From: a virus
Taxonomy: Duplodnaviria; Heunggongvirae; Uroviricota; Caudoviricetes
Strand: one strand, 5' to 3'
Length of the DNA stretch: 64,000 nt
IMG/VR virus record: IMGVR_UViG_3300033076_001232
Location: 142,435 to 206,434 of that record
The translations under genes were made by a program, and so were the position numbers. Under the pieces are notes generated by a model. That model did not search any database and was not told the origin of the DNA. It saw nothing but the letters and a program-made list of their open reading frames with translations. This document shows, piece by piece, positions 3,918-62,832 of the stretch; position 1 is the stretch's first letter, and the number at the start of each line of letters is the position of its first letter.

Positions 3918-3968
3918 CTTTTTTGAAACATTTTAGATAAATACTAATATAAAAATTAAATTATTATT

Positions 3969-29448: not shown

Positions 29449-31020
29449 ATGAAAGGAATAAACCCAGCCCTTCTAACCGACGGTTATAAAACAGGGCACC
29501 ATCAGCAATACCCGGAGGGAACAACTCTAGTGTATTCTAACTTTACCCCAAGAAGTAACAAGTATGCACCTAAGGGATGCGATCATGTTGTTTCTTTTGG
29601 TCAGCAACTTATCATGAAGCAGATTCACGAGAGCTTCCAAAAAGATTTCTTCGATCAGCCTAAAGATGAGGTGTGCTCGGAAATTAAGAGAGAGCTTTCT
29701 CTTTATCTAGGAGTCGATTACGATGTTAGTCACTTCGAAGCCCTTCACGATCTTGGATATTTACCTATTAAGGTTAAAGCAATCAAAGAGGGAACTTTAG
29801 TGCCAATCAAGGTTCCTGTCTTGACTATCTATAATACGGATCCCAACTTTTACTGGGTAACCAACTATTTGGAAACACTAATCTCAAATCTTCTTTGGAA
29901 GCCAATGACTTCCGCAACAATTGCTTACCAATACAAGAGAGTTCTTACCGATTGGGCTCTTAAAACCGACAAGGAAAACAAAACATTTGTTCAGTGGCAA
30001 GGTCACGATTTCTCTATGAGAGGTATGGATTCAGTGGATGCTGTAATTTCTTCCGGTCTTGGACACCTAACATCTTTTACTGGAACAGATTCCCTTCCTG
30101 CAATTTACGGAGCTCGTAAGTATTACGGAGCGGAAGGATTTGTCGCAGCGTCAGTGCCAGCAACAGAACACTCGGTAATGTGTGCTGGCGGGAAAGAGGA
30201 TGAGATTGAGACATTCCGAAGACTGATTAAGACTTACCCTGCTGGTATCTTGTCAGTAGTATCTGATACTTGGGATTTGTGGAAAGTGTGTACGGAGCAT
30301 GTGGTTACTTTGAAAGAAGAGATTTTGGCTCGTGATGGTAAGTTGGTTATTCGTCCTGATAGTGGTGACCCGGTTGATATCCTTTGCGGTACAGAAGATT
30401 ATACAAAATCTAAATTACCTTATGATGAGGTTAAAGATGTAGAAGTTATGCACCCTAGCCAAAAAGGTGTAATTGAACTTCTTTGGGATGTATTTGGAGG
30501 AACTGTTAACGAACAAGGTTACAAAGTACTTGATCCACATATCGGAGCAATCTATGGCGATAGCATTACTATCGATCGTGCTGAGCAAATCTGCAGCAGA
30601 TTAGCTTCAAAGGGATTTGCATCAACAAACGTAGTGCTTGGGGTAGGATCTTTCACTTACCAGTACAACACCCGCGATACATTTGGTTTTGCAATGAAGG
30701 CAACTTATGTTGAGGTTAAGGTTCCTAAATATGGTGATTTTGCGGACCAAGGGTTGAATACCGAAATTGAAGGTAGAGAAATCTTCAAAGATCCAATCAC
30801 CGATGATGGAACGAAGAAATCTGCAACTGGCTTACTAAGCGTAGTTAGCCGTCCAGGTGAAGGTTTAACCCTAGTTGATAAGTGCGACTGGAAACATGAA
30901 AATGTCGGAGCATTGGAAACAATCTACCACGACGGAAAATCTAGCTCCGAGATCACTCTTTCTGAAATTAGAAACAATCTTGAATTTTCTTTGATTAAAG
31001 AGAGAGAAATTATTTTTTAA
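29449..31020 (+). CDS. Nicotinamide phosphoribosyltransferase-family protein (NAMPT/NadV-like; possibly Namat-type)
   Basis: VPATEHSVM, SFTGTDS, IRPDSGDPV motifs conserved with NAMPT. Confidence 0.7.
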   Translation: MKGINPALLTDGYKTGHHQQYPEGTTLVYSNFTPRSNKYAPKGCDHVVSFGQQLIMKQIHESFQKDFFDQPKDEVCSEIKRELSLYLGVDYDVSHFEALHDLGYLPIKVKAIKEGTLVPIKVPVLTIYNTDPNFYWVTNYLETLISNLLWKPMTSATIAYQYKRVLTDWALKTDKENKTFVQWQGHDFSMRGMDSVDAVISSGLGHLTSFTGTDSLPAIYGARKYYGAEGFVAASVPATEHSVMCAGGKEDEIETFRRLIKTYPAGILSVVSDTWDLWKVCTEHVVTLKEEILARDGKLVIRPDSGDPVDILCGTEDYTKSKLPYDEVKDVEVMHPSQKGVIELLWDVFGGTVNEQGYKVLDPHIGAIYGDSITIDRAEQICSRLASKGFASTNVVLGVGSFTYQYNTRDTFGFAMKATYVEVKVPKYGDFADQGLNTEIEGREIFKDPITDDGTKKSATGLLSVVSRPGEGLTLVDKCDWKHENVGALETIYHDGKSSSEITLSEIRNNLEFSLIKEREIIF

Positions 31021-43653: not shown

Positions 43654-44016
43654 ATGAGAAAAATTAAGATTCTTTACGATTTTCTTAGATTGTGGATTAT
43701 GTGGGGAGATAGGAAGGAAGCATGGCAAGACGCAAATTCTATAAACGATCCTAATTTCCAGAAAGAACTGGAAGAGATATCCAATAAGTTAGATCAGGTT
43801 CTCTTAGAAAAGAATCCAAATTTTAAAGAAGTCTGTCTTGAGATATCTCAAAGACTTTCCAATTTACCTTACGATAATGGAGACATATCAGACATCGGTA
43901 ACGAGATAGGTATTGTTCTGGGTAAACATATCCAGGATGGGTCTTTCGGATGGGAAAGAGGAGATTTAAATTCTGGACTAAATCATGGTATATCAATAGC
44001 TAATGGAACACACTAA
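43654..44016 (+). CDS. Hypothetical protein
   Basis: ORF track. Confidence 0.4.
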   Translation: MRKIKILYDFLRLWIMWGDRKEAWQDANSINDPNFQKELEEISNKLDQVLLEKNPNFKEVCLEISQRLSNLPYDNGDISDIGNEIGIVLGKHIQDGSFGWERGDLNSGLNHGISIANGTH

Positions 44017-45163
44017 GAATATGAATAACATAGACAAGCAGTACTTAGATCTACTCCAGGATATATTGGACAATGGAGTAGAAAAAAGAGATAGAACCGG
44101 AACGGGGACTATCTCAGTTTTTGGTAGACAGATAAGACATAAGATGTCGGAAGGATTTCCTTTGCTTACGACGAAGAAGATGTACTGGAAAGGAATCGTA
44201 ACCGAGCTACTTTGGTTTTTAAGAGGTGATACCAATATTAAATTCTTGGTCGATAACAACTGCCACATCTGGGACGGCGACGCATACAAGAACTATCAGA
44301 GCAAACAAAAGAAACCTAAGGTCGGAGACTGGGAAAATTACATAGATTGCTACTGTGGACATACCGATACATGTTCTTGCGGAATTATGTCAAAGACAGA
44401 ATTTATAGAAAAAATTAAATCAAGCAAAGTGTTCTCAGATAAATGGGGAGAGCTCGGTCCTATTTATGGAAAGCAGTGGAGATCATTCGGTCCATCTGAC
44501 GAATACTATAATGGAACAGAGTGGGTTTATATAAGCCCAATAGATCAGATAGCTAAAGCTATAGAAATGATAAAGGAGGATCCAGATTCTAGAAGAATTA
44601 TGGTTACCGCATGGAATCCCTCAGATTTGCCTAAATCTGTACTCCCACCTTGCCATTATGGATTTCAATTTTATACAAGAGAGTTGAGCGATGAAGAAAG
44701 AGTAAAGTTATATGAACAAAAAACAAACACAGATACTTCATTCTTTCCAGTACTTACAGAAACCTTAGCTTTCCATAATATACCAACCAGAGCAATCTCT
44801 TTAATGTATAATGCCAGAAGTCAAGATGTTCCTCTAGGAACACCGTTTAATATAGCTTCATATGCTCTTCTTCTTTCGATAATTGCAGAAATAACTAACA
44901 CTGTACCGGAAGAAGTTATAGCTAACATGGGGGATTGTCACATCTATCTAAATCAGATAGATGGCATAAAGGAACAGATAAGCAGGTCTCCAAAAGAGTT
45001 GCCTCAATTGCAGATCAACAAGGAACCATTTGACAATTATCTTTTCGCCTCACATTCAGAAAAAACGTCAATCAATCATTTAATTAACGATTTGAAGCCG
45101 GAACACTTTAATATTTCGGGATATGATCCACATCCAACGATAAAGATTCCATTGAGTAATTAA
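44003..45163 (+). CDS. thyA: Thymidylate synthase (ThyA) with two internal insertions
   Basis: DRTGTGT, LLWFLRGDTN, DLGPIYGKQWR, DPDSRRIMVTAWN, PPCHYGFQFY, PFNIASYALL, GDCHIYLNQ, YDPHP all in ThyA order; ~45-aa Cys-rich insert and ~30-aa insert. Confidence 0.85.
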   Translation: MEHTKNMNNIDKQYLDLLQDILDNGVEKRDRTGTGTISVFGRQIRHKMSEGFPLLTTKKMYWKGIVTELLWFLRGDTNIKFLVDNNCHIWDGDAYKNYQSKQKKPKVGDWENYIDCYCGHTDTCSCGIMSKTEFIEKIKSSKVFSDKWGELGPIYGKQWRSFGPSDEYYNGTEWVYISPIDQIAKAIEMIKEDPDSRRIMVTAWNPSDLPKSVLPPCHYGFQFYTRELSDEERVKLYEQKTNTDTSFFPVLTETLAFHNIPTRAISLMYNARSQDVPLGTPFNIASYALLLSIIAEITNTVPEEVIANMGDCHIYLNQIDGIKEQISRSPKELPQLQINKEPFDNYLFASHSEKTSINHLINDLKPEHFNISGYDPHPTIKIPLSN

Positions 45164-50887: not shown

Positions 50888-52408
50888 ATGGAAAATATCA
50901 TACCTTTTAGCACATACTCATCTTTAAACGAGTCAGTAGATCCAAATGCTACTAATATCATTATAGGTGATTCTCAATCACCTCTGATGGCTTTAAATAT
51001 CAAGAACGCAAGTCTTATTTCTAAACAACAGGGGGAATCTTCTCTATGGAAAGGAGGAATGGGCGTAAAATGGTTAAAGGATGCGGTTTCAAAGTATCCA
51101 GTTTCACCAAGAATACAAAACGTTGTGATCAACATTGGTACAAATGGAGGATTTAACAAGAGAGATGATATTAAAGGTCTATACGATCAACTAAAAAGAG
51201 CATTTCCTAACGCTAGATTTTTACAATTACAAGGAACATGGGGATGGGGTGGTAATAAAAACGTAACCGAATCCCAGGTTAAAGATTATTACAAGGAGTT
51301 CGAAAAACAGGGAGCAATAATAGTTTATCCTGCTAAGGGATACGTAGCAACAGATAGAGAAGCACATACAAATAGACCGATTCTAGCCAAACTTGGTGCT
51401 GAGGTTGATAGATTGATAAATACCCCAGGCAAATCTGTATCTTCTGCGGTTTCATATTCATCAACATCGAGCAGTCAATCAACAAACACACAGCAATATT
51501 CAGCTGGGTCATCTAATGTTATTGGAGGTATAATTTCTAGACCCGGTGATCCCTACAAATACAAGGTAGAGAATGATCACTGGATGGCTAAAAGGGACGA
51601 TCACACCCGATGGTACGAAATTACAGGTAAGGACTTCAAACCTGGATACCAGGTGTCTATAGATATTTTAGATACCGAGAACCCAAATGCAAGGACAGAA
51701 AAAGCTCCAAAAAGAACCGTTAAGAATAACGGAGGTAATGTTAACAATGGTGGTAATGTTAACAATGGTGGTAATATTAATAATGGAGGTGGTAGCGAAG
51801 AGGATAACATAGATCAGGTTCTTCTTCCTTTTGGAAAGGGTGCGGATCCAGAAAAATTAGATCCTAAAATATCTAAAGAATTTAATTTTCATCTTATCCC
51901 GGATGGGAAAGATACCAACTATAGAAGTGCTCAGCTCCCTATGAAACACCTGAAAGACATGTACATCAAATACGGAGTTAAGAGAGTAATTAGATTAAAC
52001 GGGGACGGGAAAGATGCTAAGCATCATCTACTTAATAAGCCAGTAACTATCCAACAAGAAAGAGATCTATGTAAAGAGATCGGATGTGAATTTCATAAGT
52101 TATCAGCAACTAAGGATCAGGAAAAAATAAATCAGTTACTTGCACAGGGAAATACTCTCATCCACTGTGCTCACGGAGCAGACAGAACAGGAGGAACAGT
52201 TGGTGGGTATTTCTATGATACGAAGGTTAATCCGAGTCTAACTACAACTGATGCAATATGGAAGTACACTACCCAATATAATAACTGGAACTCTATGGCT
52301 AAGAATAGACCAAAGAAATTTGCAGATGGTGGTTACTTAACATTGGCTCAAAAATTTGGAGTGGCCGATCTAGAAACAGCAAACAAATTAGCAAAAAAAT
52401 ACAAATAA
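50888..52408 (+). CDS. Fusion protein: N-terminal SGNH/GDSL-like hydrolase, G/N-rich repeat linker, C-terminal cysteine phosphatase (HCxxGxxR; RNA 5'-phosphatase/PTP-like)
   Basis: IIIGDSQS block I; NNGGNVNNGGNVNNGGNINNGGG linker; LIHCAHGADRTGG P-loop. Confidence 0.55.
   Translation: MENIIPFSTYSSLNESVDPNATNIIIGDSQSPLMALNIKNASLISKQQGESSLWKGGMGVKWLKDAVSKYPVSPRIQNVVINIGTNGGFNKRDDIKGLYDQLKRAFPNARFLQLQGTWGWGGNKNVTESQVKDYYKEFEKQGAIIVYPAKGYVATDREAHTNRPILAKLGAEVDRLINTPGKSVSSAVSYSSTSSSQSTNTQQYSAGSSNVIGGIISRPGDPYKYKVENDHWMAKRDDHTRWYEITGKDFKPGYQVSIDILDTENPNARTEKAPKRTVKNNGGNVNNGGNVNNGGNINNGGGSEEDNIDQVLLPFGKGADPEKLDPKISKEFNFHLIPDGKDTNYRSAQLPMKHLKDMYIKYGVKRVIRLNGDGKDAKHHLLNKPVTIQQERDLCKEIGCEFHKLSATKDQEKINQLLAQGNTLIHCAHGADRTGGTVGGYFYDTKVNPSLTTTDAIWKYTTQYNNWNSMAKNRPKKFADGGYLTLAQKFGVADLETANKLAKKYK
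51731..51793 (+). repeat. 18-nt tandem repeat (ggtggtaatgttaacaat x ~3.5) encoding GGNVNN units
   Basis: Direct reading of sequence. Confidence 0.9.
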
Positions 52409-52838: not shown

Positions 52839-53312
52839 ATGGAAAACTTAAAAGCTATTGCAGAACTGGCTAACGCCTTAAAAAATGACATTCGTGTAAA
52901 ATCGTGGATTGCTCCAAACCAGCCTCTTTTCGTGAATAGCGAGGAGAACAGCGATATGTTCTTAACAACTTATCGAATAAGAAACTCATATGAGATACTT
53001 TTAAATAAGCTGGATCTATATGAGGAGATTACTGATGAGAAAGATATGGTTCTTATAAATCGATTATTCGAAATGGATTTTTATCCTCCTAGAAAAATGA
53101 GTCTTAGCGATTGGAAGAACGGAAGAGATCCAATCGTCAGAGTTACAAAGGCATATAAGGATTTAAGATGGAAGGGAAACCGAAGAAGGAGATATGAAAT
53201 TACTTTAGAATTAGATAACGGAAAAAAACATCAGATAAATCCAAATAATGTTTTAAATAAGTTCTTATCCATTAGAAAATCGTTACCTGCATTAGCAGAT
53301 TCAAACCTATAA
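52839..53312 (+). CDS. Hypothetical protein
   Basis: ORF track. Confidence 0.45.
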   Translation: MENLKAIAELANALKNDIRVKSWIAPNQPLFVNSEENSDMFLTTYRIRNSYEILLNKLDLYEEITDEKDMVLINRLFEMDFYPPRKMSLSDWKNGRDPIVRVTKAYKDLRWKGNRRRRYEITLELDNGKKHQINPNNVLNKFLSIRKSLPALADSNL

Positions 53313-53316
53313 AAAA

Positions 53317-53342
53317 GGAGACCTTTGGGTCTCCTTTTTTTT
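53317..53342. terminator. Bidirectional rho-independent terminator between convergent genes
   Basis: stem ggagacc/ggtctcc, loop tttg, A-run before and T-run after. Confidence 0.8.
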
Positions 53343-53481
53343 ATTTACCTTGTCCTCTATATCCTTTTACATACTTCTTAGACCTCTTATTGCTAGAGGT
53401 CTTACTTTTAGCGTGACGATCACATGAATTTCTGTTTTTCTTAACGAAATTGTTAGATGCTTGTACTTTTGCCTTTGCCAT
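53341..53481 (-). CDS. Very basic 46-aa protein (MAKAKVQASNNFVKKNRNS...)
   Basis: Gap-filling minus-strand ORF downstream of 53498 gene; K/R-rich. Confidence 0.3.
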   Translation of the reverse strand: MAKAKVQASNNFVKKNRNSCDRHAKSKTSSNKRSKKYVKGYRGQGK

Positions 53482-53497
53482 TGTTATTAAGGTTATT

Positions 53498-54106
53498 TTA
53501 GATTATATCTGTTGACTCCAACAGAGTGTACGAGAAAGCATTCCCGTGTATTTTAGCAGCCTTCTTACAGATAGCCATAAATTGATCGAAATCTTTGACT
53601 CTTTTAAAGACCTGACATCCTTCGCTCCAATTTTCTACCCATGCTGAATCGGTTCCAGCCTTATGAATATTAATACCAAACATTCCTGTGTCTGTTACCT
53701 TTTCTTCGAAAAGTAGGTCTCTGTTCTTGTCTCTCCATACCGTTACGTTTCCGTTTCTTTGACATAGAGCTTCATACTTACCCTGGTGTTTGTCAATCTT
53801 CCAAACTCCTCTATATTGTCCTGGCACCAATCTAGCTACACCTTTATTGTTATGGAACTCCATAACACCTTTTTTACCCGGATCGCAAGTACCAGCCCAA
53901 CAAAAGAATTGCCAGTTACCAGATTCATCTTTGTATGATATAGTTAAGTGATCGTCGAAAACGTTTGTAACTTTGTCTGCGACACTAGGAGCATTATTTC
54001 TTACCCCAACAATGTTTACATCATAGGTTTTATTAGAAGAATCGTCAAACCATTTGTAACCTTTACTTGTAACAGCCTTTTCAATCTGTTCTCTTGTGTA
54101 ACTCAT
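53498..54106 (-). CDS. YkuD-like (L,D-transpeptidase fold) protein; cell-wall peptidase candidate
   Basis: H(x16)SEGCQV resembling YkuD H..S.GC.R catalytic arrangement. Confidence 0.35.
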   Translation of the reverse strand: MSYTREQIEKAVTSKGYKWFDDSSNKTYDVNIVGVRNNAPSVADKVTNVFDDHLTISYKDESGNWQFFCWAGTCDPGKKGVMEFHNNKGVARLVPGQYRGVWKIDKHQGKYEALCQRNGNVTVWRDKNRDLLFEEKVTDTGMFGINIHKAGTDSAWVENWSEGCQVFKRVKDFDQFMAICKKAAKIHGNAFSYTLLESTDII

Positions 54107-54155
54107 AATTTATTTATTTTTTTTCCTGCTAGGGTTTTTCAAACCCCCGTTTTAT

Positions 54156-54632
54156 TTATCGTTTTTCGTCCCTGATTTTTGCTCTATAATAGAGAAGTTT
54201 ATTGACAGTGCTCATGAACAACCAGTCTTCAACATAAGGCAATTTGCATATAAAATTATATTCTCTAAGATAACACATATACTCTTCCTTATTTGGATCT
54301 TTAATGTAATACATGTTATTGCTTAAATATAAGTGATATGATTCATGAACTAATACGCAAGCTATATTGTTGATTGATCCAATCTTCATATCACTCACGT
54401 TAATAGCTATAGTGTGTGGTAATTTGGTGGACGAGTGATCAGATACTATAAATTCTATCTCCTTGCAATTCTCCATAAGAATCCTGTATGATAATGTATC
54501 AGTATCTTTTATTAACCTGATTGCGGAGTCTACTGAATATTTCCATCCATCTCCAACATCAGGTATTTTTATTTGAGCTCTTAAATGAAATATGGATAAG
54601 ATGAATATGATCAGGGTAGCTGCAATACGCAT
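54156..54632 (-). CDS. Secreted small protein with HExxH motif
   Basis: Signal peptide MRIAATLIIFILSIFHLRAQ; VHESYH. Confidence 0.4.
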   Translation of the reverse strand: MRIAATLIIFILSIFHLRAQIKIPDVGDGWKYSVDSAIRLIKDTDTLSYRILMENCKEIEFIVSDHSSTKLPHTIAINVSDMKIGSINNIACVLVHESYHLYLSNNMYYIKDPNKEEYMCYLREYNFICKLPYVEDWLFMSTVNKLLYYRAKIRDEKR

Positions 54633-55060
54633 TGTTCAATTGCTTTTTTTAATGCTGACGATACAGTCATTTTTTGGAAAGGTATTGATCCCTCGACAAC
54701 TTCTAGCATGATGGTTTTTATCTCAGTATCAGATTCACCATAAGCTTCGTACTTATTTCCTTTATAATATAGTCTAACCCCTACCTGTGTTATTTGATTT
54801 GTCTTTTCTATACCTACCACTCTTATAGTGGTTTTAGGTAACCCAAAGAAAAATATCTCAACATCTATTTTTTCGCCGGATTCTGATATACAATATTTTT
54901 CAGAAAGCATATCTTCGGTCATTTGTTTAACGCCAAATCTTATATCTCTCTTTCCTAAATCCTTAAATTTAGCTGTAGAATAAACTGAATCCACAGTCAA
55001 ACATGTTTGACCAAGAGAGATGGCCGGAATAATCAGTAGGAAAAATAATAATCTTTTCAT
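54611..55060 (-). CDS. Secreted hypothetical protein
   Basis: Signal peptide MKRLLFFLLIIPAISLGQ. Confidence 0.45.
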   Translation of the reverse strand: MKRLLFFLLIIPAISLGQTCLTVDSVYSTAKFKDLGKRDIRFGVKQMTEDMLSEKYCISESGEKIDVEIFFFGLPKTTIRVVGIEKTNQITQVGVRLYYKGNKYEAYGESDTEIKTIMLEVVEGSIPFQKMTVSSALKKAIEQCVLQLP

Positions 55061-55065
55061 GTCTA

Positions 55066-56745
55066 TTAATAATTTACTTGTCCAGCATATCCAGGAGCTA
55101 TTAAATATAAGTTTAATGAACCCCCACTTACTGGTGAATTTATTGTATATGAACTTAAACCTGGGTACGTGGACTTGAGATTCGTTGTACCGTTATTTAA
55201 TGCAGTATACTGGGATGACGTATAAAAAGCAGAAGGAGGAGTAGATACCCAGGAGTTAAATCTTCCTTGCTTTTTAGCACTTACATAATATTTGTCAGTA
55301 ACAGTAAGTCGTCCGTCATTATTTACATCATACATATTCCAGTGTAAACTCTTACGAGGAGTAAGCCCAAGAACTACACTTCCTATCGAAGTTAGATCAG
55401 ACTGCTGGATGGAAGTTATTGGGGTAGGCGCATCAAATTGGATATACCATTCGGTTGCCGGATTGGTAGATTGTGAGACACTCCAATAACCAGATGAATT
55501 AGTATAAACTGTTTGTTGTAAAACCCAAGGGGTAAATCCCATGATATAATCAAACTCTATCACATATGGTAGCGAAGTGTTAGGTAAATCGTTCCATTTA
55601 CCACCTCCTACAAATTGTGTATAATCCTCTCCTCCTGCATCGTTTGGTTCTCCACCGTTCCAATTGGTGTATTGATTTAATTTATATCTGTACGCATATA
55701 GATTATATGTTCTATCTATTTCATCCGCAGTTAGAGCTCTATTGAAAACCTGAAAGTCACCCAATCTAAATGAGCCATATCCTCCATGACCCATATTAGT
55801 AAGATCAGATAAACCTAAAGCAAAATATTCACCGTTTCCTGCGTATAAATGAGCAGCTTCTCTCTGAAAGTTAGCGGATCCAAAGTTAACATTATTTAGA
55901 TATCCCCTCATGGTAGTACCATCGTAGGTAATTGCAACTAAGTGCCATGAATTCAAAGTAATTAATGTACTTAATTGAGCAATTCCAGACCCGGTCCAAA
56001 AACCTATCCGTAGAGTGTTATTTCCAGTAATTTCCATAACCGATTCATGCCATCCTGAGGAAGGCGAGGGTGCACCTAGTTCGCTAGCAATAACCCCATT
56101 GCCCGTCGGGTAAACCCACGCAAGAAGAGTAATAACATTTGTGCTTCCAATCTTGGTGGCTAAGTTTCCAGTGATTGCATATGTGCTGGATCCATTGAAT
56201 GTTAAGTATTTACCTCCGGTGCTTGTATATGTAGGGGAGTTATATAAAGTAGCGTTAGTAGGAGAAGCTGTGATGTCAGGTAGAGTTGTTCCTCCAACGT
56301 AAGAAGAAACATCATAATCAGCTTGGAGGTTCGTTGTTACTTTACTTTCAGTCCATCTATAACCTCCTGATGGTTCCGAATATGTGTAACCTGCAATTCT
56401 GTCCTGATAATAACCAATCCATCCGGAAGGCCAAGTATTAAAAAGGAAGTTATTTTCAGCTAGATTGGAAACAGTAGCAAGGTGACCTCCCATGTTTTCA
56501 CAAGCAGCTTTTGCTGCAGTCCATGTCATAGATCCGGTTGATCTATAATAAGAATGACCATTGTAATTAGTTTGTGATGTGAATCCTGTTAGTGTTGGTG
56601 TTGTTCTCTTATAAAGTTTAACCGGAACGTTTACAGCACCAGTTCCATTTGCATTGTAAACGTAACCTGAATATGTAAAAGTCTGACCCAAGACTACGTC
56701 AGCAAAAAAAATCAATAAAGTCCATATAACCGATCTTAATCTCAT
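55066..56745 (-). CDS. Secreted C-type-lectin-like protein with LamG/concanavalin-like domain inserted
   Basis: Signal peptide; WTAAKAACENMGGHLATVSNLAENNFL ... GGEPNDAGGEDYTQFVGGGKWND (EPN/WND CTLD motifs) flanking LamG-like LNSWHLVAITYDG segment. Confidence 0.5.
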   Translation of the reverse strand: MRLRSVIWTLLIFFADVVLGQTFTYSGYVYNANGTGAVNVPVKLYKRTTPTLTGFTSQTNYNGHSYYRSTGSMTWTAAKAACENMGGHLATVSNLAENNFLFNTWPSGWIGYYQDRIAGYTYSEPSGGYRWTESKVTTNLQADYDVSSYVGGTTLPDITASPTNATLYNSPTYTSTGGKYLTFNGSSTYAITGNLATKIGSTNVITLLAWVYPTGNGVIASELGAPSPSSGWHESVMEITGNNTLRIGFWTGSGIAQLSTLITLNSWHLVAITYDGTTMRGYLNNVNFGSANFQREAAHLYAGNGEYFALGLSDLTNMGHGGYGSFRLGDFQVFNRALTADEIDRTYNLYAYRYKLNQYTNWNGGEPNDAGGEDYTQFVGGGKWNDLPNTSLPYVIEFDYIMGFTPWVLQQTVYTNSSGYWSVSQSTNPATEWYIQFDAPTPITSIQQSDLTSIGSVVLGLTPRKSLHWNMYDVNNDGRLTVTDKYYVSAKKQGRFNSWVSTPPSAFYTSSQYTALNNGTTNLKSTYPGLSSYTINSPVSGGSLNLYLIAPGYAGQVNY

Positions 56746-58427
56746 AATAAAAATCTTGTTCCCATCATAACGGTGTAGTTCAAAGCATTTTCTTTAATTG
56801 CCCATGCCCCACCTCCGTTGATGTTTAGTTTAAATTTTTTAGTGATCCCAATGTTGGTACCTAAGATAGGTAAAACAACATGTGGGGATTTTAGAAGTAT
56901 ATCGTTATAGTAGCTCACGTAAGGAGCATAAACATAAAGCCCCATAAGTTTAACTTCTATTCTTTTACCGATCTTCATATCATACATAGTACCAGCAATA
57001 GCTGCAGTCCCTATGAATGGAGCACCATAAACAGAACCAGCTGAAGCGGTTAACATATAAAGAGCTTTAGCTTTTTTATCTTTACCTAAGTTCCACATTT
57101 GTCCAGCTGTGAATGTTCCATATATGGACATCCTCTGATCGAATCCGATAGTTACTGCGGTAGATATTAGATCTATTCTTCTCTTGTGTATGAAGGCATA
57201 AAATCCACTAATATTGGGTCCTTTAATTGCCGTTGTGTAATCAATAAGAAACCCATAAGATCTTGCGCCATCCCATCTCAAAGCTGTATATCCTCCTGTG
57301 AATTTTCCACCATATGAAACATCAGAGTTTTTAAAATTGAACCCTACAAAATCGCTACTCGCTATAACTGAAGGTCTGTTTCCATTCTTATTTGTGGAAT
57401 TTTGAGCTGATGTAACCGATGATCCAACTATATTTGTTTTCCCGCCTCCTTCTGTTTTATCTGGATCTGTCTGTTCGTTGGCATTAGTAGTCTCATTTCC
57501 CTGAGATCCATTAGAAGATCCTCCCTGATTGTTTCCTTGTGAACCTGATGCAGAGGTCTCGTTTGTTTGAGTACTTCCTGTTGTTCCAGATTCGGTAGGC
57601 TGACCTGCGGTTTGTGAACCTTCAGATCCAGTAGATCCAGTAGTTGCTCCTACTGTTTGGTTGTTACTCTGTTCGTTTGATGATCCAGTGGATTGGTTAC
57701 CGCTAGAAGAGCCAGATTCACCGGATTGTCCTGCAGTTTGAGAAGTCGATGAAGATGATTTGATCTCTGATGTGGTTGTTTGACTATTACCCCCCGATGT
57801 AGACTGACCTGTGGTTTGTGAACTCTGACCCCCCGATTCAGTACTTGATCCAGTGTTTGTGGATGTTTGGTTCTGAGAATTCCCTGATCCGCCGGTCTGA
57901 GAAGTTGAATTGTTCTGCTGACTATTATTAGGTGAAGAACCGGAAGAATTGTTCTGTGCAGGATCATTATTGTTCGTATTAGAAGCATTAGAATTTTTCC
58001 CCTTACTGTTACCCTTCTTTTCGCTATTACTTGCATTAGAAGCGCTATTTACGCCCGATAACATATTAGTTGATCCACCTCCGAAGCTTTGTATTGCATC
58101 CAATGAGTTTATGATGCTCACGAAATTTAGAGATGCACTTTGAGCTATATTTATACTGGTCGGAAGACCTACTATAGATGCACATGGATTATTTCCTCCG
58201 AATGACCCGTAAACCCCCTGTGCCCACGTTTCAAAATTTCCATTATAAAAGTCAGTTGATTGGAAAGTATTGACTTGACCGTAATAGGTTACTGTAATAC
58301 CGTTAGAAGGGACGTTTATTGTCTTTAAATCCCCGGTACAAGGATCGGTATAAGAATATGCAATCTGCCCATACACGGAAGAAGAAAATAAAAGTGATAT
58401 GAGTATGAGCAGATGCTTAACATTCAT
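56742..58427 (-). CDS. Secreted protein: N-domain, ~250-aa S/T/G/N/Q mucin-like low-complexity region, C-terminal beta-barrel-like domain
   Basis: Signal peptide; extreme low complexity; alternating hydrophobic C-terminus ending ..GTRFLL. Confidence 0.5.
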   Translation of the reverse strand: MNVKHLLILISLLFSSSVYGQIAYSYTDPCTGDLKTINVPSNGITVTYYGQVNTFQSTDFYNGNFETWAQGVYGSFGGNNPCASIVGLPTSINIAQSASLNFVSIINSLDAIQSFGGGSTNMLSGVNSASNASNSEKKGNSKGKNSNASNTNNNDPAQNNSSGSSPNNSQQNNSTSQTGGSGNSQNQTSTNTGSSTESGGQSSQTTGQSTSGGNSQTTTSEIKSSSSTSQTAGQSGESGSSSGNQSTGSSNEQSNNQTVGATTGSTGSEGSQTAGQPTESGTTGSTQTNETSASGSQGNNQGGSSNGSQGNETTNANEQTDPDKTEGGGKTNIVGSSVTSAQNSTNKNGNRPSVIASSDFVGFNFKNSDVSYGGKFTGGYTALRWDGARSYGFLIDYTTAIKGPNISGFYAFIHKRRIDLISTAVTIGFDQRMSIYGTFTAGQMWNLGKDKKAKALYMLTASAGSVYGAPFIGTAAIAGTMYDMKIGKRIEVKLMGLYVYAPYVSYYNDILLKSPHVVLPILGTNIGITKKFKLNINGGGAWAIKENALNYTVMMGTRFLL

Positions 58428-58428
58428 T

Positions 58429-59151
58429 TTAGTTTTTAAATATTCCTTTTTTAATCATTCTTTGAACTATCCTAGCAGATGCTGTTTCTAATGATTTTTT
58501 AGTTGTTATTCCTATATGGGATTGATTGAATTTAATCTCAGATTCATCTATACCATCTAAGATGGAAACTGTTTTAACTGTATTAGCTTCGCCGAGACCA
58601 GATCCCATTATAATTTCTCCGGTTTCAGCATCTACAAATTTTATCTGTAGACCAAGACGGGTAATCTGGGTTGTCTGGGATTTACCGTCTATCTTTACAA
58701 CTTCGTCATCTGAAACTGAGAAATCATAAACCTCAATATAGACAAAATATTTAGCTAGCATAACCTTGCCTCTCCCGTCCATCGTATTAGCTGTGAATCC
58801 CTTATCCGAAGCTTTAAATTGTTGAACCATTCTTTCTTTGATCTCCAACTTATCCTCAGTAAATACAAAACGGTTAGTGTATTCCAGATACTCTAGAACG
58901 ATGTTTGTTACCCCGAGTCCAACTCTCTTATCTTTTAACTCCGGATACATCTCATATAAATCCTCATTGATTCCTATTTTAAGAATCTGTATAGGGATCT
59001 TGATAGTATCCATATACTCGGGTACTGAATCAAGAGACATTTTCTTTTCGAATCCAGCCTGATATTGCTCAGTCTTAATTGATCCGACAGGCTGAGCAAT
59101 AGATTTAGCTGATATTAGGATAAAAATAATTATTGATAAAAACCTTTTCAT
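58429..59151 (-). CDS. Secreted hypothetical protein (start MKRFLS)
   Basis: Start set at ATG in taagATGa context immediately after upstream stop; signal peptide. Confidence 0.45.
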   Translation of the reverse strand: MKRFLSIIIFILISAKSIAQPVGSIKTEQYQAGFEKKMSLDSVPEYMDTIKIPIQILKIGINEDLYEMYPELKDKRVGLGVTNIVLEYLEYTNRFVFTEDKLEIKERMVQQFKASDKGFTANTMDGRGKVMLAKYFVYIEVYDFSVSDDEVVKIDGKSQTTQITRLGLQIKFVDAETGEIIMGSGLGEANTVKTVSILDGIDESEIKFNQSHIGITTKKSLETASARIVQRMIKKGIFKN

Positions 59152-59152
59152 C

Positions 59153-59551
59153 TTATTCTTCATTAGGTTCTTGAGGAGTTGCTGTGTAGTCGTTATTAGC
59201 AACATTAGATAAAGAAACACCATCTTCCTCGTCTACCTTTTGGATAAGCATCTTATCTCTATCCTCAGAGTTAAACCAATAGTCAACAACTTTATTAAGG
59301 TTACCAACAAATGCTCCTAATAGAATCAATAGCATTTCTTTCCAATCTTCTTTAATTTCTACACCAAAGAAAACTGCGGAGTTTATTCCTGCGATGATGA
59401 AGAAAAATAATCCCAATACGATCGCTGTAATTCTCCATCTGTTTGCCTGCATTTGTTGAAGCATATAGTAGAAACGATTTTTGCTTTCTACCTTTACGAA
59501 ATCTTCTTTACCGAATCCCATAAATTTTTTAAAAGTATTTTTTACTGACAT
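59153..59551 (-). CDS. Small membrane protein
   Basis: Two TM helices. Confidence 0.45.
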   Translation of the reverse strand: MSVKNTFKKFMGFGKEDFVKVESKNRFYYMLQQMQANRWRITAIVLGLFFFIIAGINSAVFFGVEIKEDWKEMLLILLGAFVGNLNKVVDYWFNSEDRDKMLIQKVDEEDGVSLSNVANNDYTATPQEPNEE

Positions 59552-59571
59552 TTTATTTTAATTTATTTTGT

Positions 59572-59916
59572 TTACCATGGAGCATCTGTGCTCTCACTTT
59601 TTTCTTCTTTTTTCTTCTCATCTTTAGCTGGTTTTTCAACAACTCTTTCTTTAATTACAGTTGTACTTCCACCATTAGCATTAGATGAATTGCTCTCAGA
59701 TGAATTATCTACATTAAGATTGATAACCGGTTGTTGAGCTGGTGCAGCTTGTTCGGTTTTCGTTTCTTCCTCGTGTTCACCTCCTCCATTAAATAGAGCA
59801 ACACCTAGCCAAGTTCCACCACCAGCGATAAGTGTGGTTATTGTGCCGATAATGGTCTTTCTTAATCCTGACCAAGTTCCGTCGTTGTGATCTGTGCTTG
59901 TTGTTTCTTCAGACAT
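59572..59916 (-). CDS. Small membrane protein
   Basis: TM helix; K/E-rich tail. Confidence 0.45.
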   Translation of the reverse strand: MSEETTSTDHNDGTWSGLRKTIIGTITTLIAGGGTWLGVALFNGGGEHEEETKTEQAAPAQQPVINLNVDNSSESNSSNANGGSTTVIKERVVEKPAKDEKKKEEKSESTDAPW

Positions 59917-59926
59917 AATTATTAAT

Positions 59927-61849
59927 TTATTTTTGTTTTATTATTCTCAATCCCTCCGATTGATTCTGTGATTGAAGCGTTGCAATATAAATTCCCGATG
60001 CAAGATTTTGTATGTTAGAATAGTAAGTGTAATTTCCAGCTGGCATATTCTTTTCTAATATGATATGTTCAATAGAACCTTGAGAGTTCATAACGTATAT
60101 TTTTACGTTACCTGATTCTTTAACCGTAAAGTTGATGTAAAATTCTCCGGTTGTTGGGTTAGGATAAACTAAAGCCTTATCTGTACCATTCTCTATGGTT
60201 GCCATCTTGGCTACTATAAGTATACCATTCGTTGGAGTTATTGACATATCCTTGGATGCTAAATCCCCCGAGAATTTCCTCGTAGTGTATAGAGGAGAAG
60301 TTTCCCATTCTCCCTGTGGTTTCTTGGCAACGAATTTTAGAGTAAATACGTTATAGTTATCGGGTATCATATATTTCTTATCTGCAGATGGATCATATCC
60401 TGTCCATTCCACTATCCCATCCATTGGATTGATTGAAGAAATCCAAAACATAGATTTATCTGAATTCTGTAATTCCTTGAATTCAAGAAGATCTTCATCG
60501 TAAATCATACCCAGTTGGAGGGATGAGAGCATCTCACCGTTTGTTTTAACTGTAATAGGAAGTTCAACTAGATTGCCCTCGTTTACTTTTATAGTTGGCA
60601 TATTAACCTCCATAGTTTTTGTAGGAAAGTCGTATTCGACGTTCATATCGATTACATTTTCCATTGCTGATGGATAATTGGGATCAGGGTTAGGTAATAT
60701 GGTGATTGGTGTCATACGTGCCATATGATAACCAGTTGCGTTAGCGTCACCAGGAACAAGTACATAGAAAGTAACCGAATCTGGTTGGCCAGGTAGGATG
60801 TTATAGTAGAAGTTTGTTGTTCCTGCTATGGTAGAAGTGTAGTTAGTAGATGGAGATCCTGTAATTGTGTTATATTCTGATACGGTAAAGAATTTAACAT
60901 CTTTAACGTTGTTTGGCCAGAATGAGAATCTCCCCGATATTCTACCGAAAACTCCATAAGCGTCAGTGATAGTTAGATTGTTTGATCCATTAACGTCACC
61001 AGTATAAAAGTCCCATCCAGTAGGAGTAGCACCTCCTAGAATCCATTGATTTATTAATTGAGCATCTGCTGACGAAATAACGTTACCCACTCCCATTGTA
61101 TCACCTTTAATAGCTAAGCGTACATCATAGTATGTGGTATCAATTATTTCACTGAATGAGAAATCTCCATTTATGTCAGTAAGATAAGTTGCATGTTGAG
61201 ACCAAACTGAACCAGTTTTAACTTTTTTCTCTAAAGCGAGAGGTAAGTTTTTTGCTGGTGATCCTGTTACGTTGGTAAACGTACCATGGAAATCTAAATT
61301 AGGCTGATCCCATGCACCGCCGTAGCTGTATAGTGTTAAAGTGGTATCTGTTCCTGGTTGTGATGCAGCGTACTGATTATAAACCTGTGCACCCGTCCAT
61401 TTTAAAGAATCGATTGATGGTAGGGCGTAGAAAGATGCAGCTTGAACGTGGTTAAATGTTACCAAGAATCTTTCGCCGTCTGGTATAGTATATGTTGCGC
61501 TACTCCCGGTATAAACAAGAGTAATTGTTACATTTCCATTCACGTTGTTGTCTAAGAATTGTAAATCCAAATTGGAAGGAGATCCAATTAGAGAGACAGA
61601 TGCCGAAGAGAAAGCGTTTTTATCATAGAAAACTCTAAATTGGACACCAGTATACTTAGTAGCAGTGGTGTTCTTTAAAGTTATTCTAGCCTGAGATTGG
61701 TTTTGGGTAAAAGTACCTAATTGATAAGTGGTATCAATTAGGGCATAAATTCCATTTCCTGGTGCAGGCGGACCTGACTGCGCGAAGATGGTATTCACCG
61801 AAATTGAAAGCAAGCTTAGTAGCAATGCTAAGATAAAATTGTTTTTCAT
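59927..61849 (-). CDS. Secreted protein with type IX secretion system (T9SS) type-A C-terminal sorting domain
   Basis: Signal peptide; C-terminal LVYPNPTTGEFYINF..VKIYVMNSQG..GNYTYYSNIQNLASGIYIATLQS..RIIKQK matches Por_Secre_tail pattern. Confidence 0.7.
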   Translation of the reverse strand: MKNNFILALLLSLLSISVNTIFAQSGPPAPGNGIYALIDTTYQLGTFTQNQSQARITLKNTTATKYTGVQFRVFYDKNAFSSASVSLIGSPSNLDLQFLDNNVNGNVTITLVYTGSSATYTIPDGERFLVTFNHVQAASFYALPSIDSLKWTGAQVYNQYAASQPGTDTTLTLYSYGGAWDQPNLDFHGTFTNVTGSPAKNLPLALEKKVKTGSVWSQHATYLTDINGDFSFSEIIDTTYYDVRLAIKGDTMGVGNVISSADAQLINQWILGGATPTGWDFYTGDVNGSNNLTITDAYGVFGRISGRFSFWPNNVKDVKFFTVSEYNTITGSPSTNYTSTIAGTTNFYYNILPGQPDSVTFYVLVPGDANATGYHMARMTPITILPNPDPNYPSAMENVIDMNVEYDFPTKTMEVNMPTIKVNEGNLVELPITVKTNGEMLSSLQLGMIYDEDLLEFKELQNSDKSMFWISSINPMDGIVEWTGYDPSADKKYMIPDNYNVFTLKFVAKKPQGEWETSPLYTTRKFSGDLASKDMSITPTNGILIVAKMATIENGTDKALVYPNPTTGEFYINFTVKESGNVKIYVMNSQGSIEHIILEKNMPAGNYTYYSNIQNLASGIYIATLQSQNQSEGLRIIKQK

Positions 61850-61896
61850 GATGTAAGATGTTTGTTTTGGTTTTGGTTCTGGTTCTTTTTTAAGTC

Positions 61897-62727
61897 CTAC
61901 ACGGAGGTAAGAGCTTTATAGTATTCTTTGAAGTGTTTGATTCTATCAGCTAGACCTATAGTTCCTCCATTTACTCTTTTAGTAACTGCGGTAACAGTAG
62001 CATCATCTGCACCTCTATCGCATATTGACCACAATTTGTTTGAATCGAAGAAAAATGCTGCAGAAGCCAGAGGATATTTCGTTGCAACTAAATCCGGATT
62101 TGCCACACAATCTTCTCCAATGAACTTAGTAAAGTTAGTGTAGTTTGATTTTCCAGTTAATTGAATATAACCTCTACCTCTAAATTTGAAACCTTCTTTA
62201 GAAGCTTCGTCTCCATTACCCATTCTTGATGCGTAAACCCTGGATGCAATCTTCTCAGGTTGACGAGCATAAGATTCATTTAGATTTCCAGGAAAGTACT
62301 TACCGAATATCTTTTTCAAACCATCAGCAGAATAATTTAGGTTTTCTGTAACTGCCTTAAATCCTCCTGATTCGTGACCGCACTGCGCTAAAAAGTGGGC
62401 TAGTCTTAGGTTATTAGTGATGTTGAATTTTTTTGCAGTGTCTGGGATTTGTGCTAAAACTGCATCAGGAACGTGTCCTCTCAGACCTTCTAAATTTAAA
62501 TTTTCCATCTTAGGTACTGCTACCGGAGCTGATGCAGGCGCAGATTCACCAAACATTTTACTCCAGGTTCCAGGTCCTACAACACCGTCGGCTGTTAAAC
62601 CATTAGCTGCCTGCCACTCTTTTACCTTAGCCTCCGTTCCCGCTCCAAATACTCCGTCTGCACTTAATCCTAGTTTTTGTTGAAGCTTTTTCACTTCTTC
62701 TCCATTGGATCCTTTCTTTAGTAACAT
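61897..62727 (-). CDS. Endolysin: two PG_binding_1 repeats + GH19 (chitinase-like lysozyme) catalytic domain
   Basis: LQQKLGLSADGVFGAGT / LTADGVVGPGT repeats; HFLAQCGHESGG and FRGRGYIQLTGKSNY GH19 motifs. Confidence 0.75.
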   Translation of the reverse strand: MLLKKGSNGEEVKKLQQKLGLSADGVFGAGTEAKVKEWQAANGLTADGVVGPGTWSKMFGESAPASAPVAVPKMENLNLEGLRGHVPDAVLAQIPDTAKKFNITNNLRLAHFLAQCGHESGGFKAVTENLNYSADGLKKIFGKYFPGNLNESYARQPEKIASRVYASRMGNGDEASKEGFKFRGRGYIQLTGKSNYTNFTKFIGEDCVANPDLVATKYPLASAAFFFDSNKLWSICDRGADDATVTAVTKRVNGGTIGLADRIKHFKEYYKALTSV

Positions 62728-62832
62728 ATTTTTGATTTTTTTATTTATATATCCCCCCTTAAATTAAAAATCTCCCCTTAATTTTTTAATAACCGAATCT
62801 TTTTGATAACTTTAGGTATATAAAAATAAAGT

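Follow-up and report, generated by a model that had tools for sequence, protein, structure and literature searches.

The 64-kb window considered here, the whole stretch of 64,000 nucleotides (nt) taken from a Caudoviricetes record (IMGVR_UViG_3300033076_001232, positions 142,435 to 206,434), carries a block of genes on the minus strand at 53341–62727. The open reading frame (ORF) list of the window places exactly 11 ORFs in this interval, numbered g01–g11 along the direction of transcription (Table 1). The same 11 genes were called independently on an identical contig (L002) of a JGI metagenome, which bears out the eleven co-oriented minus-strand genes described in a first-pass annotation of this DNA. 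The remaining long ORFs of the window lie nearly all on the plus strand, and the sign of the GC skew flips across the block. Judged by gene order in relatives, the conserved unit is g02–g09, here called the cassette; the endolysin gene g01 and the genes g10 and g11 are loose neighbours. The gaps between successive genes from g02 to g09 measure −22 to +20 nt and those at the borders 47 nt (g01/g02) and 49 nt (g09/g10), a spacing that agrees with g02–g09 as a unit. The parts of the cassette span the Bacteroidota envelope, with g03 and g04 assigned to the inner membrane, g08 and g09 to the periplasm or the outer-membrane periphery, g05 and g06 to the outer membrane, and g02 and g07 to the cell surface.

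Table 1. Features of the minus-strand block and its borders (aa, amino acids; nt, nucleotide positions in the window).
Feature	Position	Strand	Description and basis
g02	59927-61849	-	640-aa exported scaffold protein; signal peptide ending FA-Q, N-terminal beta-rich region
g02 dockerin-like module	aa 247-316, nt 60902-61111	-	Pfam Dockerin_1 below cut-off; PDB 4uyp_B
g02 cohesin	aa 413-536, nt 60242-60613	-	PF00963, 40.1 bits (cut-off 24.1)
g02 type IX secretion system (T9SS) type A C-terminal sorting domain	aa 561-640, nt 59930-60169	-	Por_Secre_tail, TIGR04183
g03	59572-59916	-	114-aa bitopic (type II) membrane protein; alignment of homologues
g04	59153-59551	-	132-aa protein with two transmembrane helices; hydropathy and alignment
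g05	58429-59163	-	Divergent CsgG-family outer-membrane protein, 240-244 aa; most conserved cassette gene
g06	56742-58427	-	561-aa protein; signal peptide, N-terminal domain, spacer, C-terminal 12-stranded beta-barrel
g07	55066-56745	-	559-aa exported lectin; split C-type lectin, inserted LamG/ConA-like domain, C-terminal dockerin-like module
g08	54611-55060	-	149-aa exported protein; truncated g05 paralogue with an invariant Cys 2-4 residues past the predicted cleavage site
g09	54156-54632	-	158-aa exported small zinc-metallopeptidase-like protein; invariant HExxH
g01	61897-62727	-	276-aa endolysin; PG_binding_1 and glycoside hydrolase family 19 (GH19)-type catalytic domain, without signal peptide
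g10	53498-54106	-	202-aa cytoplasmic protein; phrog_3000 family, conserved H148 and S161-E-G-C164
g11	53341-53481	-	46-aa highly basic peptide (15 K+R, 1 D+E); closest relatives only
Divergent intergenic region	62728-62832		AT-rich; between the endolysin gene (minus) and a plus-strand gene
Hairpin	53311-53340		Bidirectional, intrinsic-terminator-like; perfect 13-bp stem, A-run on one side and T-run on the other

The cassette was traced through 80 IMG/VR loci around g05 homologues and through metagenome contigs, with all eleven proteins mapped. Homologues of g05 are present in 88 of 88 loci, those of g02 in 86, g07-type proteins in 86–87, g06 in 79–87, g03 in 82, g08 in 76 and g09 in 69. The g03 homologue always lies between those of g02 and g05, and in relatives the place ahead of g05, or the one directly behind it, is taken by a g04 homologue or by a different small hydrophobic ORF. 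Sixty-six loci contain all of g02, g05, g06, g08 and g09; order and orientation match the window in 39 of them, the genes are co-oriented in another order in seven, and orientation is mixed in the other 20, which belong mostly to a more distant g05 group with g09 divergently upstream of g02. Furthermore, contigs on which g05 is 37–47% identical keep the order of cohesin protein, small ORFs, CsgG-like protein, a protein of ~330–470 aa and further ORFs. Because the gene order recurs in ~85 other loci, the unit goes beyond chance.

Among 50,697 GenBank phage records, the only cultured phages found to carry the cassette are the Flavobacterium phages vB_FspM_immuto (hereafter immuto). They were reached by protein-level searches only: the block had no megablast match in these records, and a tblastn search with g05 (E≤0.01) returned the immuto phages alone, with no similarity to other phage CsgG genes. 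The immuto equivalents are gp013 (g07), gp014 plus gp015 (g02), gp016 (g03), gp017 (g05, 66% identical), gp018 (g06) and gp019 (g08), and all but two of the immuto cassette genes are annotated as hypothetical. The immuto cassette stands directly behind genes for DNA polymerase, helicase, ribonucleotide reductase and nuclease on the same strand. The earlier proposal that the proteins are exported late in infection finds no support in this position behind replication and nucleotide-metabolism genes, and the gene order hints at early or middle expression.

A scan of a genome collection with g05 gave nine matches, all on contigs of metagenome-assembled genomes (MAGs) assigned to Flavobacterium, Sediminibacterium or Bacteroidetes. 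Several of these contigs are ~250 kb long, and these are probably phage, most likely binned with the MAGs. No isolate bacterial genome with a close g05, and no bacterial source operon, was found in the same scan. The hosts are inferred to be Flavobacterium or, more broadly, Bacteroidota, given that immuto infects Flavobacterium and that related contigs are binned with such MAGs. On three distant contigs of 81–103 kb, two of them marine (L101 and L102, Tara Oceans) and one from a JGI metagenome (L103), a lipobox-bearing CsgG-like gene sits in a similar cassette. These distant cassettes adjoin capsid genes (L101 and L102) or portal genes (L103), accompanied in L101 by a GH108 lysin and a holin-like gene.

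Of the eleven proteins, six begin with a Sec-type N-terminus that ends in x-Gln, the predicted cleavage ends being FA-Q in g02, IA-Q in g05, YG-Q in g06, LG-Q in both g07 and g08, and RA-Q in g09. These signal peptides were called by a heuristic sequence pattern of a hydrophobic core, a small residue and Gln. The x-Gln pattern is kept in 81/81 homologues of g02, 57/70 of g05, 19/19 of g06, 20/21 of g07, 74/76 of g08 and 65/69 of g09; among the remaining g05 homologues, 12 have a lipobox instead. Exposure of an N-terminal Gln by signal peptidase I is the 'Q-rule' of Bacteroidetes (PMC5837995, PMC10653852). The Cys content of g02, g05 and g07 is 0.09–0.44%, compared with 1.31% in other proteins of the window, as expected of outer-membrane and extracellular proteins.

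The gene conserved in every locus compared, g05, has homologues in 5414 clusters, a few of which are named CsgG by JGI. The listed ORF of 264 aa at 58429–59223 is an upstream extension of g05, which probably begins at 59163 or 59151. Scanned directly against Pfam, NCBIfam and PHROG, g03, g05, g06 and g08 gave nothing significant; g05 alone had no Pfam CsgG match at E<0.1, and a single-sequence PDB search with it was also empty. It took a family profile and a structure model to reveal the CsgG identity of g05. Built from 35 diverse relatives, the profile matches Escherichia coli CsgG in PDB (E=2.3e-4, residues 3–195), and 17 of the 35 aligned family members match the Pfam CsgG family (PF03783; best 1.9e-17). 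Residues Tyr69 and Pro70 of g05, the former nearly invariant and the latter invariant, align with Tyr51 and Pro52 of the CsgG constriction loop; the positions of Asn55 and Phe56 are unconserved.

The AlphaFold2 (AF2) model of the g05 monomer has a predicted local distance difference test (pLDDT) score of 82 and a predicted template modelling (pTM) score of 0.73. Its 17 best Foldseek matches in PDB are all CsgG, including 4uv2 and 4uv3 (E 1e-8 to 3e-7, template modelling (TM) score 0.50–0.58), and its best match in BFVD is a phage CsgG. Two strands of 18 residues each, 135–152 and 157–174, are predicted where CsgG has its first membrane hairpin. The signal peptide of the window copy ends ...SIA-QPVG and has no lipobox Cys; an L-x-G-C lipobox is present in more distant g05 homologues and in 12 of 70 phage copies. 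By profile, family members and predicted fold, g05 is a divergent CsgG.

The shorter protein g08 is related to g05, the two family alignments matching each other in hhalign with a probability of 97.4% (E=1.1e-11). No credible match came from profile searches of PDB with g08, g09 or g10; a match of g08 to bS1 in such a search was short and at chance level, and was rejected.

The C-terminal sorting domain of g02 scores above the curated cut-offs of both Pfam (Por_Secre_tail, PF18962, 43.3 bits, cut-off 27) and TIGRFAM (TIGR04183, 37.5 bits, cut-off 23), and it is kept in the g02 homologues of ~81 loci. The first-pass description of a 640-aa signal-peptide protein with a T9SS C-terminal domain was therefore correct. 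The signal peptide has its hydrophobic core at residues 3–25, followed by FA-Q. Like the type A cargo of T9SS, such as the gingipains and secreted and surface proteins of Flavobacterium johnsoniae, g02 combines a Sec signal with a type A domain and would be expected to become covalently attached to the cell surface (PMC4804311, PMC8545088, PMC12618676). It differs from that cargo in being encoded by a large phage of virulent type and in bearing cohesin and dockerin-like modules and no enzyme.

The dockerin-like assignment in g02 comes from residues 257–298, which match Dockerin_1 (PF00404) with 16.6 bits and E=0.009, below the threshold of 22.9 bits, and from a weak match of the segment to the ScaB dockerin (4uyp_B, E=0.017, residues 3–73 of 75). 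The N-terminal region of g02 was considered as a second cohesin, and BLASTP gave no support for it. The immuto annotation divides the counterpart of g02 between two genes, gp014 and gp015 ('cohesin domain-containing protein'; L001, NC_055915, 11598–13422). The division falls between the dockerin-like and cohesin parts and would leave the cohesin and T9SS half without a signal peptide; a genuine gene split, a frameshift and an error in sequencing are all conceivable causes.

The C-type lectin domain of g07 comes in two halves, residues 59–137 and 341–398, which in PDB searches match the N- and C-terminal halves of animal C-type lectins (CD23, mannose-binding proteins, DC-SIGN). Inserted between them is a complete LamG/ConA-like domain (residues 185–343), and the interrupted stretch as a whole covers 55552–56571 of the window. 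Pfam identifies both Laminin_G_3 (2.4e-15) and Lectin_C (PF00059, 9.2e-08, 33.2 bits, cut-off 22.6), in agreement with the C-type lectin/LamG protein of the earlier annotation. The second half of the lectin has an intact canonical Ca2+ site 2 sugar motif, EPN...WND, which reads GGEPNDAGGEDYTQFVGGGKWND and is present in 44 of 68 g07 homologues. In animal lectins, EPN goes with mannose-, GlcNAc- or glucose-type ligands. There is one Cys among the 559 residues of g07, and the family median is two.

The C-terminal ~170 residues of g07 (~388–559) are homologous to the dockerin-like region of g02 (BLASTP E=4e-8) and carry the loop DVNNDGRLTVTD. The Ca-loop/helix motif DVNxxxxLTxTD occurs in 47 of 68 g07-type and 45 of 95 g02-type ORFs; the first Ca loop of the dockerin-like module is degenerate. 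Across phages this C-terminal docking module is constant, and the head domain of g07-type proteins is a C-type lectin, a lectin with LamG, an Ig_7 domain or none. The immuto homologue gp013 is without the LamG insert. A cohesin in g02 and a Ca-loop motif in g02 and g07 recall cellulosomal and non-cellulosomal cohesin–dockerin assemblies, from which the cassette differs in its below-threshold dockerin, the lack of glycoside hydrolases and the use of a T9SS anchor instead of sortase or S-layer homology anchoring; pairing of the two modules here is predicted from the sequences.

The g06 protein combines a conserved N-terminal domain of ~110 residues (21–130), containing two invariant Cys 52 residues apart, with a spacer (residues ~131–340) rich in S, T, G, N and Q that varies in length and sequence among relatives. 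Its C-terminal domain (residues ~353–561, nt 56745–57371), modelled on its own with AF2 at pLDDT 80, forms twelve antiparallel strands. The mucin-like beta-barrel protein proposed earlier is accordingly recognisable in the low-complexity region and the predicted 12-stranded barrel. In Foldseek the barrel matches the beta-domains of autotransporters (EstA, NalP, BrkA, EspP, Hbp), the porins KdgM and NanC, and FapF. The order of parts also resembles that of type Va autotransporters. Unlike them, g06 had no Pfam match to the autotransporter family among 30 family members, its model predicts no helix before the first strand or inside the barrel (residues 1–13 of the model are disordered), and an invariant Cys pair would be unusual for an unfolded passenger. 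The g05 and g06 genes are separated by 1 nt and are translationally coupled.

In alignment, the invariant residues of g09 are H96-E97-x-x-H100, E116-E117, Y121 and E124, so that the HExxH protein of the first-pass annotation stands. Its homologues fall into 1104 clusters, one of which has a SprT-like Pfam match. In the membrane protein g03, the cytoplasmic N-terminus is conserved, the transmembrane helix is rich in Gly and Thr, the periplasmic tail is charged and of low complexity, and a C-terminal Trp is invariant. In g04, a strongly conserved acidic segment, DYWFNSEDRDKMLIQKVDEED, follows the second transmembrane helix, and the protein as a whole is 75–80% conserved. From its sequence, g04 may be an inner-membrane component or a candidate holin. 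Small size, two transmembrane helices and an acidic C-terminus are holin traits; no holin family was matched in Pfam, PHROG or NCBIfam, and linkage to the endolysin is unconserved.

The endolysin g01 is well supported, with Pfam matches to PG_binding_1 (PF01471, 4.7e-14, 52.8 bits, cut-off 23) and Glyco_hydro_19 (PF00182, 1.5e-09, 38.4 bits, cut-off 25.5) and a PHROG match to the endolysin family phrog_181 (1.5e-69), as the first reading had it. Its supposed place at the head of the unit did not survive comparison. Of 85 related loci, 38 have no endolysin gene within 10 kb, 22 have one on the opposite strand, 18 have it co-oriented and upstream, and seven have it downstream; in immuto it lies 8 kb from the module. 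By gene order, g01 is a neighbour of the cassette and no stable member.

At the other border, g10 matches phrog_3000 (1.3e-34) and phrog_33083, annotated 'endolysin' (1.2e-13). The label 'YkuD-like' given to g10 stays tentative: the invariant H148...S161-E-G-C164 resembles the motif, but no Pfam YkuD match was obtained at E<1, and no PDB match with a profile search. Homologues occur in 37 loci, at varying positions. The highly basic composition claimed for the 46-aa g11 was confirmed, and likeness to small ribosomal or nucleic-acid-binding peptides is in composition only. Homologues of g11 were found in 3–4 loci (50–71% identity), always behind a g10 homologue in the nearest relatives, and no significant family match was found in Pfam at E<1. 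No export signal was found in either g10 or g11, and their linkage to the module is unstable, so that neither belongs to a secretory run as had been suggested.

The hairpin beyond g11, AAAAAAGGAGACC-TTTG-GGTCTCCTTTTTT, is the top terminator-like site of the region, is usable from both strands and ends convergent plus- and minus-strand units; as a sequence feature, the bidirectional terminator reported at this end of the block is real. At the opposite end, the intergenic region is divergent and AT-rich as described, and the promoter ascribed to it is putative, a sigma-70 scan of the region being at chance level. Within this region the direct repeat TTAAGGGGRGAT occurs twice on the minus strand (62751–62762 and 62770–62781, 19 nt apart), just upstream of the endolysin start. 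The repeat has no other copy in the window and could be a candidate regulator-binding site.

The plus-strand genes of the window include nicotinamide phosphoribosyltransferase (NAMPT), thymidylate synthase, glycosyl- and methyltransferases, thioredoxin and transfer-messenger RNA (tmRNA), and identical or near-identical copies of g05 lie on 220–300-kb contigs classed as viral by IMG/VR. On the strength of this gene content and this classification, the window is a non-structural part of a large phage. Origin of the block as a foreign island acquired by horizontal insertion was considered and rejected, as its GC content matches that of the rest of the window, and relatives such as L004 have these genes in the same orientation as the flanking ones.

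Several of the surrounding plus-strand features are of separate note. The tmRNA gene (~490 nt, 3429–3920) encodes the tag peptide EEVELAVAA* according to ARAGORN and scores 87.3 bits against Rfam RF00023 (gathering score 47). A phrog_1745 'DNA transfer protein' with a metallophosphoesterase region is encoded at 8841–10415, and two large glycosyltransferase/methyltransferase fusion proteins at 14296–18542 have their best match in 735-kb 'uncultured phage' records. The NAMPT gene lies at 29449–31020, and the thymidylate synthase (44003–45163) is ~50 aa longer than the PHROG profile. Just outside the block, a 506-aa protein (50888–52408) has the G/N-rich repeat NNGGNVNNGGNVNNGGNINNGG and a weak C-terminal signal of tyrosine/dual-specificity phosphatase type; a gene of equal length (506 aa) stands at the matching position on the identical contig L002.

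Pelagimyophages, pelagipodophages and the OM43 phage Melnitz have been described as carriers of CsgG, accompanied by CsgF and, in later descriptions, by CsgA/B, FecR and adenylate cyclase (PMC7029224, PMC9599517, PMC9004378). The roles proposed there are aggregation ('sibling capture'), uptake and the timing of lysis (PMC7029224, PMC9599517, PMC9004378). The cassette shares with these type VIII modules (HTVC008M-type, HTVC023P-type and Melnitz) a CsgG-family protein in a conserved, multi-gene, exported block and aquatic heterotrophs as hosts. It differs in that CsgF, CsgA/B, FecR, adenylate cyclase and histidine kinase were not found in Pfam and NCBIfam searches; in their place are the truncated CsgG paralogue, the 12-stranded barrel with its mucin-like spacer, the T9SS-sorted cohesin protein, the C-type lectin and the small HExxH peptidase. 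Furthermore, the hosts are Bacteroidota here and Proteobacteria there. Phage genes with Q-rule signal peptides are also known from Porphyromonas gingivalis phages, where they were taken as a sign that phages modify the host outer membrane (PMC10367356). Those are single genes of temperate phages, whereas the present cassette has eight genes with assignable folds and belongs to large phages of lytic type.

The first-pass annotation regarded the block as a set of phage-encoded factors exported by host machinery. Sec signals with x-Gln in six proteins and the T9SS domain of g02 uphold the export of phage factors through host routes. Sole reliance on the host does not follow, as the cassette has outer-membrane parts of its own in the CsgG-like protein, the truncated paralogue of that protein and the 12-stranded barrel. 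The CsgG relationship, the cohesin with its dockerin-like partner module and the intact EPN/WND site of the lectin had escaped the first-pass annotation. The reading favoured here, held tentatively and with chances not far from even, is that g02–g09 is a phage-encoded, envelope-spanning secretion-and-display cassette of Bacteroidota phages that coats the infected cell with a lectin-bearing scaffold for adhesion. Computation supports the genes, the export signals as a sequence pattern, the family and fold assignments, the sugar-binding motif and the synteny from which this reading starts.

During infection, six products would pass through Sec and be cut by signal peptidase I ahead of Gln. The CsgG-like g05, assisted by its truncated paralogue g08, would form an oligomeric channel or ring within or beneath the outer membrane. 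Next to it, g06 would be inserted by its 12-stranded barrel and would bear a long flexible spacer and a small domain closed by a disulfide. By means of its type A C-terminal domain, g02 would be handed to the host T9SS and then attached at the cell surface, as type A cargo of T9SS is secreted and surface-attached (PMC4804311, PMC8545088). The g02 cohesin may then capture g07 by its dockerin-like module, and possibly further g02 copies in the same way. As g07 is without a T9SS signal, it would most likely leave through the CsgG-like channel that the phage itself provides; proteins pass through CsgG as unfolded chains, and the scarcity of Cys in g07 agrees with such a route. The inner-membrane proteins g03 and g04 and the HExxH peptidase g09 may act as assembly or processing factors. 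The outcome would be a coat of Ca2+-dependent, mannose-type (EPN) lectins on a scaffold. Such a coat could stick the infected cell to glycans of neighbouring cells or particles, so that progeny would be released near new hosts, a benefit of the 'sibling capture' type.

A stronger version, itself rather doubtful, proposes a virus-encoded extracellular matrix. As g02 has both a cohesin and a dockerin-like module, it could polymerise head-to-tail on a T9SS-anchored layer, while the CsgG-like channel exports unfolded, Cys-poor proteins, lectin heads cap the chains and the sticky cells tether uninfected hosts or particles before lysis. If true, this would be a Bacteroidota-specific form of 'sibling capture', open to test in the cultured pair of immuto and Flavobacterium sp. 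LMO8.

A number of observations weigh against the display cassette as favoured here. Its parts are known from computation, from which we infer the oligomeric state and channel activity of g05, the substrates and their routes, cohesin–dockerin binding, timing and the adhesive role. The window g05 itself falls below Pfam CsgG detection and is without the lipid-anchor Cys. E. coli CsgG (4uv3, 4q79, 6l7a) and g05 share the fold (TM ~0.55), remote homology, the Tyr-Pro pair and a long beta-hairpin. Set against this, only Tyr-Pro of the constriction loop is retained, with Asn55 and Phe56 unconserved, and the first membrane hairpin is ~six residues shorter and more polar. CsgG is a nonamer, and the g05 model is of a monomer only. 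The curli partners are also missing, as no CsgA/B/E/F homologues were found in Pfam and NCBIfam searches of the ten larger proteins at E<0.1 or of g11 in Pfam at E<1. The dockerin assignment, being below threshold, warrants the term dockerin-like only. Canonical C-type lectin domains are disulfide-stabilised, whereas g07, with one Cys, lacks the conserved disulfide pairs, and its route across the outer membrane is a prediction from sequence features. Moreover, Melnitz-infected OM43 cultures showed no clumping (PMC9004378), which weakens the aggregation idea for pelagic analogues.

The fold of g05 also occurs, by Foldseek, in the non-channel proteins PelC, LptE, LpoB and FlgT. Since these have the same fold without being pores, g05 could on the model be a ring or plug that serves the g06 barrel instead of a pore. 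The match of g05 to PelC and LptE, along with the coupled outer-membrane barrel gene g06, recalls the pairs PelC–PelB and LptE–LptD. However, these fold matches are weaker than those to CsgG, and the cassette is without genes for polysaccharide or lipopolysaccharide synthesis. The partner barrels of PelC and LptE are larger than 12 strands.

Of the three functions offered by the first-pass annotation, surface remodelling, adhesion or exclusion, each is still within the most reasonable reading. Exclusion deserves separate weight. With the same cassette and the same routes, the coat and the outer-membrane proteins might cover or jam phage receptors, T9SS and gliding components among them, and so block secondary infection and spare the loss of progeny on infected cells and debris. 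This explanation by receptor masking is somewhat unlikely, and several features suit it. Outer-membrane proteins with which phages block receptors are well known, T5 Llp for example; a scaffold-borne lectin for host-type glycans would cover the cell's own polysaccharide; and variable heads on a constant docking module look like arms-race diversification. Phage resistance in Flavobacterium maps to gliding and T9SS genes, which makes these components receptor-relevant (10.1101/2020.10.02.323337; PMC9804748). Counting against masking, no cassette protein matched a PADLOC defence or exclusion model, eight genes are costly beside known single-protein exclusion factors, and nothing in the data identifies a receptor. 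An extended lysis module is more doubtful still. It would comprise the g01 endolysin, g04 as holin and g03 as an inner-membrane, spanin-like protein, with g05, g06, g08 and g09 breaching or depolarising the outer membrane or timing lysis. In its favour, the endolysin gene borders the cassette here, and 47 of 85 relatives have one no more than 10 kb away; g04 resembles a holin in its small size, its pair of transmembrane helices and its charged C-terminus, and g03 has type II membrane topology. Directly upstream of the cassette, the marine relative L101 carries a GH108 lysin and a holin-like gene, and a timing role has been proposed for the CsgG of phage Melnitz (PMC9004378). Yet many relatives lack a nearby endolysin gene or have it on the other strand, and in immuto it is 8 kb off, while g03 stays inside the cassette. 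The conservation of g04 at 75–80% is unlike that of typical holins, the signature of an outer-membrane lipoprotein spanin is missing, and a lysis module leaves no role for a T9SS-sorted cohesin protein or a lectin with an intact sugar site.

Uptake pores are a very improbable explanation, in which the CsgG-like protein and the 12-stranded barrel, with surface glycan binders, would raise the import of nutrients or oligosaccharides for the replication of a large phage. With size taken into account, the closest superpositions of the g06 barrel are those on the oligosaccharide porins KdgM and NanC (TM 0.66–0.72, target-normalised), the window is rich in auxiliary metabolic genes, and an uptake role was suggested earlier for pelagiphage CsgG (PMC7029224). 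Pfam and NCBIfam revealed no periplasmic or inner-membrane transporter partner and no glycoside hydrolase in the cassette, and uptake leaves the cohesin and dockerin modules, the T9SS anchoring and the spacer-borne N-terminal domain of g06 unexplained. Hardly credible, finally, is the absence of any functional unit, the genes being co-oriented but unrelated morons, or virion fibre and decoration proteins whose hydrophobic N-termini are no signal peptides. The match of g07 to phrog_8510, 'virion structural protein' (E 4e-09), would agree with a virion role, and lectin, Ig and cohesin-like domains do occur on phage fibres. Order and orientation are nevertheless kept over ~85 loci, down to 37% identity of the core gene, and signal peptides that follow the Q-rule are kept in six families. 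The folds of an outer-membrane barrel and of CsgG cannot be reconciled with a virion role, and in this phage the mapped genes around the block belong to auxiliary or nucleotide metabolism, none of those scanned having matched a structural family.

No description of this cassette was found in the full-text literature. Phage-borne CsgG itself is already known, and it is the Bacteroidota version, tied to T9SS, cohesin–dockerin modules and a lectin, that appears to be undescribed. The core gene g05 exists in more than 5,400 distinct versions (at 90% identity) in public metagenomes, on phage contigs of 80–300 kb from fresh and marine water, and the cassette is among the better-conserved non-structural blocks of these phages. 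Its parts may provide tools in a minimal CsgG relative, a compact cohesin/dockerin pair and a disulfide-poor C-type lectin. The questions touched are why phages carry CsgG, how aquatic phages find their next host and how superinfection is controlled in Flavobacteria, and they can be tested with phage immuto and its host in culture. If the display reading is true, Bacteroidota phages would, beyond reprogramming metabolism, install their own outer-membrane export device and exploit the host T9SS to redecorate the surface of the virocell with lectins.

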